Assembly: GCA_964654645.1 (NCBI GenBank) | Contig: CAZZJO010000034.1 | Location: 42,086-106,085, forward strand | Length of the DNA: 64,000 nt | From: an uncultured Verrucomicrobiota bacterium | GTDB lineage: Bacteria > Verrucomicrobiota > Verrucomicrobiia > Limisphaerales > CAZZJO01 | Reading direction: 5' to 3' | Shown here: positions 5,094 through 25,013 of the stretch, piece by piece | Position numbering within the stretch: position 1 is the first letter of the stretch | Layout: each line of letters starts with the position of its first letter | The notes under the pieces: generated by a model | The model's input: only the letters and a program-made list of their open reading frames with translations | Database searches by the model: none | Told to the model about the DNA's origin: nothing | Made by a program: the position numbers and the translations under genes

Positions 5094-8000
5094 TTACGTT
5101 GTGGTTCTTTGCTTGATGGTTTTGAGCAACCAACCACCTTTTTGGCGGTTTGTAAGGGCTTGGAGTTCTGCAACGGCCCTGTCACGGTTGATGCGCTGAG
5201 CAATGAGATCTTCGTAAACCATATCAGCATGCTTACGCCGGCGTACAGCGTCGTCGGCATCAAGGAGCTCTTCGACATACCTCCATATCCATTGGAAAGG
5301 AGTGGGTTTTTTCTTATTAGTTGTACTAATCTTGCGGCGGATATCAGACATTGTAGCCTCAAGTTTTTCCAGGATTCTGTCGAGTTCCGCATTAATTTGC
5401 GGTGAGAGTGATGGGTTGGAATTTTTGAGGATTAGGACAGTTTCTCTGACGTATTCTTCACAAAGCACACCGAATTCATTGAATGATGCCAGAGGCGCTA
5501 AGGTCTGGTAAGTTATGCGTGTTGCATTCTCCCTAAGTAGTTTTGCGGCTTTATAGCATTTTTCCCAGGCAAGCCAACGGTAAACGAAGTCCAACCCAGT
5601 CCCTTTTATGTTTTGAATTCCCATGATGCGATTATAAAACCCTGGGGGTGTATGCCGTGCTATAGTTTCCACTATTTCGTCGCCACTAGCGTGATAGTCC
5701 CAAATGACAACGAGCTTTGAATTGAACCATTTTTGTAAAAGGCTTCTGAACTGGTTGTTAAGTTGGGCAGCATTATGAGAAGAGGATTTGCTTATTTCTG
5801 ACCTGAATTGGTGGTATTCATGGAAGATAGAAAGCTCGTATTTTAGGGTGTTAATGATGGCAGATTCGATTTCTCCCAAGTTATAAGGTTGAAGGTGTTT
5901 TTGAAGTTCGTCGGGGTTATTCCAAAGTGGAATAAATGAGTCGGGGTTGTTGATGCAGGATTGTGCCGACAGCATTATTTTCAAGTGAGTTTTGATTAGC
6001 GATTCAAAGACTGGAAGCCTCATACGGATAGCGTGACGTTCAAGGTTGAACAATGCTTCTTCTGGATTGGGTTGTGTCACGTCTTTCCAAAGACTGATTC
6101 GTGGGAAAGCTTCTTTCCATGCGTCATCAATGTATCCTAGGAGACCCGAAAGGTTACCACCGATTAGGAAGTGTCGGTCAGCAGAGATGTCATTGACTAA
6201 TATTCGGGCGAAGACTTGTGATCGTGCTACGCGATCGGCTCGGTTATTGACGACGGTCGATATCCAAACTCCTGGGTCATTTATGTAATCTTGTTTATCG
6301 AATCCAATGCGGGACCAGTTATTTAATGTACCGAACCGCTCGTTAGCAGACATACCGTTGGTAAATTCTAGCTTACGGGTGCGGATAGGAGCGGCCGGGA
6401 AGGTTTTGAGAACACCAAGATCAGGTACCACTCTGTCGGCCATTTCCTTGAGTGCAAAATCGCGGTCGATCCCCAGTTCTTCTGCAAGTCCAAGTACGAG
6501 TGCTATGTTGTAAGGATGTTCTTCATACGGAAACCGTTGCAAAACATCCGGTGTTAAAAGTCCTGCTTCTAACCATCCGACTGTTCGGATCTTTGTTTTG
6601 CATCGCCGGGCTTCATCTTTTAGGATGGGGATCATTTGTTCTTCGGTGGTTACTAGAGTGGATTTTTCTGGGATGAAGCCGGCTATAACTTCCGCTACGT
6701 TAAATCCTGCGGGTCCTTGTATATCTTCGTGATCAGGGTAAGTGTTAGTGATCGTGGCGAAATCGTCCTTCATCCAATGGCGTTGAAGCACACGCACATA
6801 GGAGGGATTTAACCCCATGCATTCCCATAACAAAACTTGGGCATGTAATCTACCTGCTAAGCGGACCACGAATGTTTGTTCCCATATAGTGGCTTTGTCG
6901 TAAGGCCGGAAAAGGAACATTTCCTTTAACTCCCCGAAAGGCCAAGAATGCAAAAGCATTGCTTCGCAGCCTGTTGTTTTGGAAACCGTTGCATAACCCA
7001 ATGAGTTGAACAAGGCGGCTTTAAGCCGTTCTGTTCCGGACTTACCTCGTGTGCCCCAGCCGCCGATTACTAAAGGAATGCGCGACCGCCAGTATCTTAA
7101 CCTGAGGTTTGCGAATAGATGGATACCAAAAAACAACAGGCAAAATGCTATGATGAATATGGTTAGTTCGAAAACTGAGTTTTGATAAAGCGAGACGAAG
7201 TATTCGTATAGTTTGTCGAAACTTTTGAACAGGAGCGTAAAGTAATCTGCGATAGGTTGCCAAAGTTGGTCTAGCCAAGGAACTGCAAAAAATACGGGGA
7301 AGAAGCGCAGAACCATTAGATCTGGCTGTAATGGAACACCTGATAAATCTGGATAGGTATGAAATCTTATCTTGAACCCGAGTTGGAGCAATGTAGATAG
7401 GTAGGATTTGGGGTCTTCTGTAAAGTGCTCACGCCAATTACGTTTTTGCGCAATTTTTTCGAATTTAAAAGTGAGTTTTAGCAAAGCCCTAATCCGTTGC
7501 CATCCTCGGGGCGATTCCACTTCTGTGATTCCTTCAGGGGTGAATACATAAAATTTGTGTTGTCTGAATCCGAGTTCTATTGCTGATACAAATTCATCCA
7601 GGAGTGGCAAATAGGGACGCCACCCACCTTCTTCGGGGATATATAGGGGTTCACCCGGTACTTTAGTCTGGGCCATTTCGGCCATGATTGTGGTGTGGAT
7701 ATGTATTTCACTGTGAAAGATCCGGCCTATTGTGTGGGGAAATGCTTGGCGTTTATCTGGAGATGGGTGCTTGAGTTCGTGCCACCAACGCCACCATCTA
7801 AAGCCGAAAATGTACCCACGAGTTATTACAAAGCCTTTGGAGGTAAGCTTTAGTTGTACTGGGTGATCATAACGGCAAACGGTAGCTAAAACCCGGCCTA
7901 CGAATGATGGATCCAGATCGGCAGTCCAGTGCTTGGGGATGCGCTTGCTTTTCCCTGGAGGAATGGACTCGATTAGCTGTTGGAGATTTTGGCGGAGCTC

Positions 8001-25013: not shown

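Follow-up and report, generated by a model that had tools for sequence, protein, structure and literature searches.

The biology of poly-gamma-glutamate (PGA) has been worked out nearly entirely in Bacillus and other monoderms, and the question of how a polymer of this type would pass the outer membrane of a diderm bacterium has so far been without answer. This question is raised by a locus of an uncultured Verrucomicrobiota bacterium, located at positions 5094-25013 of a stretch of 64,000 nucleotides (assembly GCA_964654645.1, contig CAZZJO010000034.1, positions 42,086 to 106,085), the whole of which is referred to here as the window. The open reading frame (ORF) list of the window contains seven co-oriented genes in this interval, all on the minus strand, and these lie at the positions given in an earlier note on this DNA, which had described seven same-strand genes as an operon built around homologues of the PGA synthase proteins PgsB and PgsC. 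In the direction of transcription they encode a sensor histidine kinase (HK), a response regulator (RR) and five further proteins, here named A to E. Our analysis suggests, with a probability of roughly 60%, that the locus encodes a regulated envelope-spanning machine, in which a gamma-glutamyl-type polyamide would be polymerised at the inner membrane and then moved across periplasm and outer membrane. All cluster coordinates given below refer to the minus strand.

The gene junctions were read directly from the sequence. The A-B spacer is 1 nt (TAA-A-ATG), the B-C spacer is 3 nt (TAA-GCC-ATG), C and D overlap in an ATGA at 14767-14770 (-4 nt), and 8 nt lie between the TAA of D and the ATG of E, all of which is as previously described. 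The intergenic gaps are 99 nt between A and RR and 199 nt between RR and HK. The longest ORF of D starts at 14794, spans 9329-14794 and encodes 1821 aa, whereas translation from the ATGA start at 14770 gives 1813 aa and equals the public gene call P0052. Because of this overlap the start of D was placed at 14770, so that the length of 1821 aa given before holds for the longest ORF, whereas the likely gene product has 1813 aa.

The two proteins that connect the locus to PGA synthesis are E and A. Protein E (1408 aa, 5094..9320) is composed of a HEAT domain, a module around residues 500-600, a probable membrane hairpin, a PgsB core and a conserved C-terminal extension. Its PgsB/CapB amide-ligase core (residues 721-1056, 6153..7160) matches the NCBIfam PgsB model TIGR04012 over residues 723-1056 (E=3.6e-61, 207 bits, model positions 3-321 of 380) and is 32.5% identical to Bacillus anthracis CapB over 335 residues. 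The P-loop GGWGTRGKSGTER, at residues 753-765 and directly after the transmembrane segment 719-737, is invariant in 34/34 family members. Protein A (1067 aa, 18140..21343) begins with two PgsC/CapC membrane domains, the first at residues ~28-176 (20816..21262) and the second at residues ~216-355 (20279..20698). The Pfam model PF14102 (Caps_synth_CapC) is matched in two stretches with E=4.6e-36 and 124.3 bits, compared to a gathering score of 27, and CapC itself aligns to residues 40-179 (27.7% identity) and 228-353 (22.6%). The profile searches thus gave significant matches for both synthase subunits, and the tandem arrangement proposed for A is borne out by the two Pfam stretches. Only PgsB is matched by E and only PgsC by A among the NCBIfam models. 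The cores of E and A are therefore true PGA synthase homologues belonging to divergent subfamilies, which are not equivalogs by the NCBI thresholds.

The remainder of E was characterised mainly at the family level. HEAT repeats, which the earlier note had proposed, give a weak signal in the window protein alone, but HEAT_2 is matched in 22/30 family members (best E=2.9e-17) at residues ~191-402 (8115..8750), and the family profile retrieves alphaRep and AP-2 beta HEAT proteins from the PDB for this same region. Family-averaged hydropathy indicates two hydrophobic segments, at residues 669-687 and 719-737 (7110..7316); the second is strong and corresponds to the single transmembrane helix noted before, and the first is weaker and conserved in the family. 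Together they probably form a membrane hairpin, a topology that would leave both the HEAT domain and the ligase in the cytoplasm. Invariant residues concentrate at 500-600, 700-1100 and 1200-1300. The module at ~500-600 (7521-7823), located just before the hairpin, holds 18 of them and carries the motif …FGFRxWRxLHExRHPSPDKRQAFxHTIGR…KVPGEPL…GWRPYLPL…; it has no database match and could serve in regulation or in contacts between subunits. Among named proteins, the nearest to E (61% identity) are those of a Verrucomicrobiae metagenome-assembled genome (MAG).

Protein C (291 aa, 14767..15642) appears to be an exported, PghP-like amidohydrolase of the zinc-carboxypeptidase fold. An alignment of C was used to scan one genome per GTDB species, yielding 57 loci, 35 of which have full 10-kb flanks. 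Sequence searches of Pfam, NCBIfam and the PDB gave no match for C, none of its 57 orthologues matches any Pfam family, and the 28 orthologues looked up are, without exception, unnamed or annotated as 'hypothetical protein'. Thirteen residues are invariant in the 57 orthologues (H124, D128, R154, D158, Q185, H187, G188, L239, G240, N244, H260, E262 and R268), and four of them, H124, D128, H187 and E262, are predicted to be metal-binding or catalytic. An AlphaFold2 model built from a 43-sequence alignment has a mean predicted confidence (pLDDT) of 91.9 and a predicted TM-score (pTM) of 0.88. The Foldseek comparison of this model with the PDB returned, at probability 1.0, 2qvp (a putative metallopeptidase) and 4oko (Francisella REP34), with the PGA hydrolase PghP (3a9l) at rank 4 (E=5e-6, TM-score 0.51). 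At the same probability it retrieved another PGA hydrolase of phage origin (21dc), the PGA-bound structure of PghL/YndL (5onj), an N-formylglutamate-amidohydrolase-like protein (2odf) and carboxypeptidases A2 and A4.

The zinc ligands of PghP are H40, E45 and H103 and its catalytic residue is E165, and the PghL equivalents of PghP N151 and R171 contact the carboxylates of PGA (PMC6506827). A PghP family profile of ten phage sequences was compared with the C family by hhalign; in the sole alignment obtained, the statistics of which are weak, PghP H40/E45/H103/N151/E165/R171 correspond to C H124/D128/H187/N244/E262/R268. An N-terminal signal or anchor is found in 27/28 C orthologues, and C itself has a signal peptide. 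Judging from the model and the conserved residues, C is an exported metallo-amidohydrolase with the fold shared by PghP, N-formylglutamate amidohydrolases and M14 peptidases, lying outside PF05908 by sequence, and the previous description of C as an amidohydrolase-like protein with a signal peptide is thereby supported. A homologue of C (E=3e-36) was also observed at 10007-10906 of contig_28945 of an uncultured Planctomycetales MAG (L012). Up to a distance of 10 kb from it, the remaining six proteins of the cluster were not detected, so that the C hydrolase family exists outside this system too.

C is also connected to the synthase through the soluble part of A, which is an internal duplication (blastp of A against itself, E=4e-11), as the earlier note had stated. 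Both copies are related to C: in hhalign comparisons of the C and A families, repeat 1 (residues 403-634, 19442..20137) gives a probability of 98.1% (E=1.4e-13) and repeat 2 (residues 667-940, 18524..19345) one of 98.4% (E=7.8e-15), and the relationship of repeat 1 with C is also indicated by pairwise blastp (E=7e-5). The repeats of A are without the predicted Zn-ligand histidines of C. In the A-family consensus these residues are replaced, the 'QAPH…D' of C reading 'VPrPlfE' and its 'QLHG' reading 'vQvR', and the H-x-E pair of C is substituted by 'lWL'. On the evidence of these alignments, A is a fusion of two PgsC domains and two catalytically dead copies of C. The repeats are placed in the periplasm because they are homologous to an exported protein, and by analogy with C they would bind the nascent chain on that side of the membrane. 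A family-level positive-inside analysis of A gave a signal too noisy for a topology assignment.

Proteins B and D would provide the path across the periplasm and the outer membrane. Protein B (830 aa, 15646..18138) has a single family-conserved transmembrane segment at residues 7-25, in accordance with the one anchor described earlier, and no Pfam or PDB sequence match. Its K/R-rich N-terminus, followed by this single segment, places the bulk of the protein in the periplasm. The core of B (residues ~1-260) is universal among carriers of the system, whereas its extension (residues ~288-661 and beyond) is lost along with D, and residues 288-661 are homologous to residues 205-626 of D (hhalign probability 87.8%, E=3.3e-6).

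Protein D (1813 aa, 9329..14770) is made up, after a signal peptide, of two halves joined by a variable linker: the conserved periplasmic D-N and the C-terminal D-C, at the end of which lies a barrel. The boundaries were set from phmmer domain limits and natural gene splits, with D-N at residues ~45-1060 in the 1821-aa numbering (11615..14662) and D-C at ~1165-1821. In Methylococcaceae and Crenothrix, D is split into two genes exactly at the variable linker, and at the start of the stand-alone D-C genes of Methylococcaceae there are lipoprotein-type signals, for example LGGC and LSGC. D itself and 84/98 of its Met-started full-length relatives have a signal-peptide-like N-terminus, so that the signal peptide proposed for D is also a feature of its family. 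Members of this family are mostly 1700-1900 aa long; D has no Pfam family match, and a phmmer search with D-C of 1.84 billion representatives gave 568 clusters (at 50% identity) with E<=1e-3, 430 of them with E<=1e-10.

The AlphaFold2 model of D-C (66 sequences, pLDDT 85.6) contains helical hairpins of about five helices (model residues 74-143, D residues ~1174-1243), a beta-sandwich (model residues 147-370, D residues ~1247-1470, 10385..11056; pLDDT mostly 85-96) and a barrel (model residues 418-688, D residues ~1518-1788, 9431..10243) of 14 antiparallel strands of 11-16 residues, modelled with pLDDT >90. Every top Foldseek match of D-C in the PDB is an outer-membrane barrel, at probability 1.0. 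The best matches are the 14-stranded OmpG (TM-score 0.63-0.66) and CymA, and AlgE is also listed. The model thus points to an outer-membrane barrel of the OmpG/CymA type, and both the C-terminal barrel and the beta-sandwich that had been proposed from the sequence are recovered in it. A 14-stranded barrel of this type has room for a linear chain in extended form. After the last strand, the final ~33 residues of D (9332-9430) carry the motif GRGYRDFxPGExDFxxLR, which is present in 74/124 relatives and may be a plug or an assembly signal.

One feature attributed to D in the earlier note, the tetratricopeptide (TPR)-like repeats, was not recovered: Pfam TPR models match only one of 26 D relatives, and that marginally (E~0.06). 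A putative helical stretch occupies ~630-900 of D-N, and residues ~827-887 within it weakly resemble, at the profile level (E=0.018), the alpha-superhelix of soluble lytic transglycosylases; otherwise, no meaningful match was obtained when profiles of B, C and D were searched against the sequences of the PDB. Since TPRs are not confirmed, what had been called a TPR plus porin exporter is better read as a beta-sandwich and helical-repeat scaffold plus porin. The assignment of D to the BcsC/PgaA family of TPR proteins was considered and rejected, as it has no sequence support. A LysM domain was observed in 2/26 full-length D relatives (best E=1.5e-10), which fits a periplasmic scaffold that would contact the cell wall.

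The first two genes of the locus are regulatory, as recognised before. The HK (898 aa, 22317..25013) has a periplasmic CHASE2 domain (Pfam, E=2.9e-16), transmembrane segments, and HisKA and HATPase_c domains with weaker matches. The RR (224 aa, 21443..22117) matches Response_reg with E=4.1e-25 and has no output domain in Pfam; as it is without a DNA-binding domain, it probably acts through protein binding. Its residues 1-100 (21818-22117) form a low-complexity N-terminal extension rich in Ser, Pro, Glu and Lys, and this extension of ~100 aa is missing from the ~125-aa orthologues at other loci.

The cluster is conserved well beyond this genome. The seven proteins of the window were searched by phmmer against the six-frame ORFs of the related loci, and among the 35 loci with full flanks A, B and the HK were each found in 33, E in 32, the RR in 22 and D in 16. 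The order A-B-C-(D)-E is fixed, with genes that abut or overlap; in 33 of these loci an HK homologue is placed directly upstream of A, and an RR homologue (E<=1e-3) lies between HK and A in 22. The co-occurrence that the earlier interpretation called for is thus found across phyla. The full form is present in Gammaproteobacteria (Marinobacter, Pseudidiomarina, Methylococcaceae, Crenothrix, Porticoccaceae, Arenicella and Chromatiaceae), in Betaproteobacteria (Massilia glaciei, Polaromonas and Accumulibacter, and Thiobacillus, where the contig ends inside D), in a deltaproteobacterial MAG (the contig again ending inside D), in Pirellulaceae and in the Acidobacteriota Sulfidibacter and Acanthopleuribacter. 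The HK, A and C were detected in Enhygromyxa before the contig end, and an E homologue was found in Mariprofundaceae on a contig that does not cover the upstream genes; presence in Verrucomicrobia is indicated by E homology alone. Acanthopleuribacter pedis KCTC 12899 has two copies of the system (L031 and L039), and in the rearranged copy L031 the genes for A, B, RR and HK share one strand, to which D also belongs at a distance of several kb, and C lies on the opposite one.

A shorter form was found at about 20 loci of Sphingomonadales (Erythrobacter, Qipengyuania, Novosphingobium and others), with the composition HK-RR-A(~850 aa)-B(~260 aa)-C-E. These loci are without D, and their short B matches only residues ~5-260 of the window protein. 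The outer-membrane module is accessory to a core of HK-RR-A-B(short)-C-E. Since the B extension and D are lost together, they can be regarded as one functional module accessory to that core, and they probably form one physical module.

The genes that usually accompany PgsB and PgsC were also searched for. With CapA, CapD and CapE (pXO2 queries), phmmer gave no match at E<=10 among all six-frame ORFs of the 64-kb window, which agrees with the previously stated absence of PgsA, PgsE and CapD, and none of the three was seen at the related loci L001, L002 and L008. Neither an Asp/Glu racemase nor a GGT homologue, both of which had been reported as missing from the window, was found in Pfam scans of 37 of the window's ORFs of at least 150 aa, a set that includes the seven of the cluster and extends up to position 57816, a few short overlapping ORFs excepted. 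PgsB/PgsC homologues have been counted in diderm phyla in 2015 and 2017 (PMC4497714, PMC5542703), and the supplementary table of the former lists long fused proteins of this family, for example one of Enhygromyxa (KIG14861.1, alignment end at residue 1166), as BLAST rows without comment (PMC4497714). [quoted passage not shown] In the full-text literature searched, which does not cover most subscription journals, no paper was found on a PGA-type synthase combined with a periplasmic hydrolase and an outer-membrane barrel, or on the fusions seen here, so that the claim that no such apparatus had been described still stands within that literature. Diderm PgsB/PgsC are therefore already known, and what is new here is the export apparatus and the fusions.

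Taken together, these features suggest the following scheme, in which the identity of the polymer and its export by this cluster are deduced from the architecture. E would act in the cytoplasm as a PgsB-type, ATP-dependent amide ligase that adds amino-acid units; it is homologous to PgsB with an intact P-loop, and glutamate would be the presumed substrate. The two PgsC domains of A would take the part of Bacillus PgsC as membrane partner and conduit, and the dead hydrolase copies of A would hold the emerging chain on the periplasmic side, replacing the chain-handling role of PgsA. The inner-membrane-anchored B and the periplasmic half of D, which share beta-sandwich modules, would bridge the periplasm; their homology and joint loss are observed, and physical contact between them would be expected from this scheme. 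The 14-stranded barrel of D, established at the level of a model, would then be the outer-membrane exit through which the polymer passes. C, with its hydrolase fold and conserved putative catalytic residues, would act on the same polymer, trimming or releasing the chain or clearing stalled polymer, as BcsZ, PgaB, AlgL and PelA do in polysaccharide systems. The CHASE2 kinase would sense an envelope or external signal and phosphorylate the RR, which would in turn bind a protein. The cytoplasmic HEAT domain of E is the obvious candidate, although a control route from kinase through RR to this domain is speculative. In Sphingomonadales, only synthesis, conduction and holding of the chain, hydrolysis and regulation would take place.

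Several observations weigh against this interpretation. No polymer has been detected so far from any carrier organism, and the topology of A and E, the contact between B and D, the target of the RR and the passage of polymer through the modelled barrel are all elements that we infer. Scans of the locus for promoters and terminators gave nothing above chance, and the canonical aromatic beta-signal is not at the extreme C-terminus of D or its relatives. Both synthase subunits score below the equivalog cut-offs of NCBIfam, E with 207 bits for TIGR04012 (cut-off 222.7) and A with 55 bits for TIGR04011, the PgsC equivalog (cut-off 96.45), and because both cores are divergent the substrate could differ from glutamate. 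As to C, the Gamma_PGA_hydro-type Pfam search proposed in the earlier note was negative, PF05908 being absent from 57/57 orthologues at E<=10; its fold is common to many carboxypeptidases and N-formylglutamate amidohydrolases; the hhalign comparison of the PghP and C families is weak (P=0.031, probability 1.6%); and Asp occupies in C a predicted metal-ligand position that is Glu in PghP. Finally, the absence of D from Sphingomonadales means that the outer-membrane module is not obligatory in a diderm lineage.

A first alternative is that the same machinery makes another product, E being a PgsB-like enzyme of the Mur-ligase family that synthesises a different amide-linked polymer, such as a poly-amino acid of mixed composition or other linkage or a polyglutamyl tail on another acceptor, with C matched to it. 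We regard this as unlikely. It draws on the scores of E and A below the equivalog cut-offs, on the identity of E to CapB of just 32.5%, on the Asp-for-Glu exchange and the extra N-terminal subdomain of ~110 residues in C, and on the absence of a glutamate racemase from the scanned part of the window. Against it, PgsB and PgsC are the sole models that E and A match among all those of NCBIfam, the structural neighbours of C include three gamma-PGA hydrolases, one of them with PGA bound, and the positions N151 and R171 of PghP, whose PghL equivalents bind the carboxylates of PGA (PMC6506827), are aligned with invariant residues in C.

According to a second alternative, synthesis takes place but the polymer is retained within the periplasm or on the envelope, where it might serve for instance as osmoprotectant, as cation buffer or as a capsule-like layer fixed to peptidoglycan or outer membrane; D and B would then form an anchor, a scaffold or an uptake and recycling channel instead of an exit. 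Sphingomonadales, which are without D and have a short B, yet keep the synthase, the hydrolase and the regulators, would be explained in this way; the peptidoglycan-binding LysM domain of two D relatives and the function of the closest barrels, OmpG and CymA, as uptake channels point in the same direction. We nevertheless consider it improbable, as a barrel that ends a periplasmic protein of ~1500 residues, next to a synthase and a hydrolase, reproduces the layout of BcsC, PgaA, PelB and AlgK/E (PMC9384988, PMC9734138, PMC8892547), AlgE is among the structural matches of the D barrel, and the product of PgsBC in Bacillus goes outside the cell (PMC4497714). The idea that B, C and D serve an unrelated envelope function (an adhesin, or a peptidase plus porin) beside a PGA synthase was rejected as very improbable: B, C and D are without annotated function and the C homologue of the Planctomycetales MAG has no other cluster protein detected nearby, but the order is fixed, with abutting or overlapping genes, across at least five phyla, the C fold is fused twice onto the PgsC protein A, and loss of the B extension goes hand in hand with loss of D, the other components being retained.

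Compared with the Bacillus PgsBCA(E) and CapBCADE systems, the proposed export machine shares a PgsB-type ligase with a P-loop and PgsC/CapC domains side by side in one operon. It differs from them in that the window is without PgsA/CapA, PgsE/CapE and CapD, that the ligase is embedded in the 1408 aa of E together with a HEAT domain and an extension at the C-terminus, and that PgsC is duplicated and fused to two pseudo-hydrolases. Additional differences are the extra families B, C and D, the outer-membrane barrel, the dedicated two-component system and the diderm hosts. With regard to other diderms, a PGA locus of the Gram-negative Fusobacterium nucleatum is cited in PMC4497714, and CapsuleFinder reports 'PGA' systems in Planctomycetes, Synergistetes and Fusobacteria (PMC5542703). 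These diderm loci, including capBCA of Francisella, resemble the present one in having PgsB and PgsC homologues in diderm hosts, whereas they are defined by a compact CapB and CapC, with or without CapA and CapE, and have no assigned outer-membrane component (PMC5542703).

C has the same fold as PghP/PghL (MEROPS M86, PF05908), with a His-His spacing of 63 in both (H124-H187 in C, H40-H103 in PghP) and a downstream Glu and Arg that align. In contrast to PghP, the second predicted metal ligand of C is Asp and lies one residue nearer to the first His, and C has the additional N-terminal subdomain and an export signal. Moreover, C is encoded in a chromosomal operon of the producer and is not a phage invasion enzyme, and two dead paralogues of it are fused to A.

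The general arrangement, with an inner-membrane synthase, a periplasmic hydrolase, a scaffold joined to an outer-membrane barrel and an anchored periplasmic partner, all in one operon, resembles that found in Bcs, Pga, Alg and Pel. As synthase, an amide ligase takes the place of their glycosyltransferase, the periplasmic part of D is mainly beta-sandwich and not TPR, and its barrel is OmpG/CymA-like with 14 strands, whereas the barrels of BcsC, PgaA, PelB and AlgE have 16-18. The Bcs/Pga/Alg logic invoked in the earlier note thus stands for the periplasmic hydrolase fold of C and, in the model, for the outer-membrane barrel of D, and is not confirmed for the TPR part, Pfam TPR models matching one of 26 relatives. 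No sequence homology of the cluster proteins to Bcs, Pga, Alg or Pel proteins is detectable. Pfam and NCBIfam searches revealed no glycosyltransferase, PilZ, GGDEF or EAL domain in the seven proteins and, unlike in synthases controlled by cyclic di-GMP (c-di-GMP), control appears to be exerted here through a CHASE2 kinase and a receiver-only regulator.

The genes flanking the cluster are unrelated to it, with a plus-strand NiFe-hydrogenase/NADH-type cluster on one side and a pst-phoU-phoB operon and a porin on the other. The hydrogenase-type cluster (441-4794, plus strand) lies directly downstream of E on the opposite strand and encodes 2Fe-2S/4Fe-4S/molybdopterin-like, NADH-quinone 20-kDa-like and NiFe large (HoxH-like) subunits; it adjoins E also on public contigs with an identical E. 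The metagenome contigs on which an identical E protein was found include one from JGI sample 3300000082, named 'GBSSSed77C', which, from the name alone, we take to mean Great Boiling Spring sediment at 77 C. Elsewhere in the window, a peptide-chain release factor ORF (35321-36358, plus strand; PCRF and RF-1 domains) begins at position 12 of the PCRF model and is preceded by a gap of ~200 nt (35112-35320); it could be prfB, in which a short first ORF, overlooked here, is usually joined to the main one by a programmed +1 frameshift. The sole Pfam match of a 1280-aa protein at 38920-42762 (minus strand) is the passenger-associated-transport repeat (PATR), which points to an autotransporter-like surface protein, and a subtilase with a PA domain (36551-38677) adjoins it. 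The window contains no tRNA genes and no Rfam matches. Its plus-strand GC skew, in 2-kb bins over 1-64000, ranges from 0.00 to 0.26 and is never negative, regardless of gene orientation, and the cumulative skew never drops across the 64 kb.

More broadly, the locus may represent a widespread class of trans-envelope secretion machine in diderms that had gone unrecognised, dedicated to a non-ribosomal polyamide and not to a polysaccharide, a protein or a lipid, the product of which may not be classical poly-gamma-glutamate. We put this forward tentatively and at somewhat less than even odds. Such a class would have its own outer-membrane translocon family (D), a periplasm-spanning beta-sandwich partner (B), pseudo-enzyme domains for chain handling that stem from its own hydrolase (the A repeats and C), and control by a phosphorelay in place of c-di-GMP. 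The synthase has incorporated, in subunit A, two inactive copies of its partner hydrolase, and the analysis provides a first functional hypothesis for three sizeable families, B, C and D, the last of which alone comprises 568 clusters. Cultured carriers include Marinobacter alexandrii, Massilia glaciei, Erythrobacter, Qipengyuania, Pseudidiomarina, Sulfidibacter and Acanthopleuribacter. Should the source organism of the window be a thermophile, its enzymes would be of interest for making or degrading PGA. The cluster is a concrete candidate apparatus for PGA-type export in diderms, and in this reading the design of a synthase, a hydrolase and a scaffolded porin would reach from polysaccharides to polyamides, apparently by convergence.

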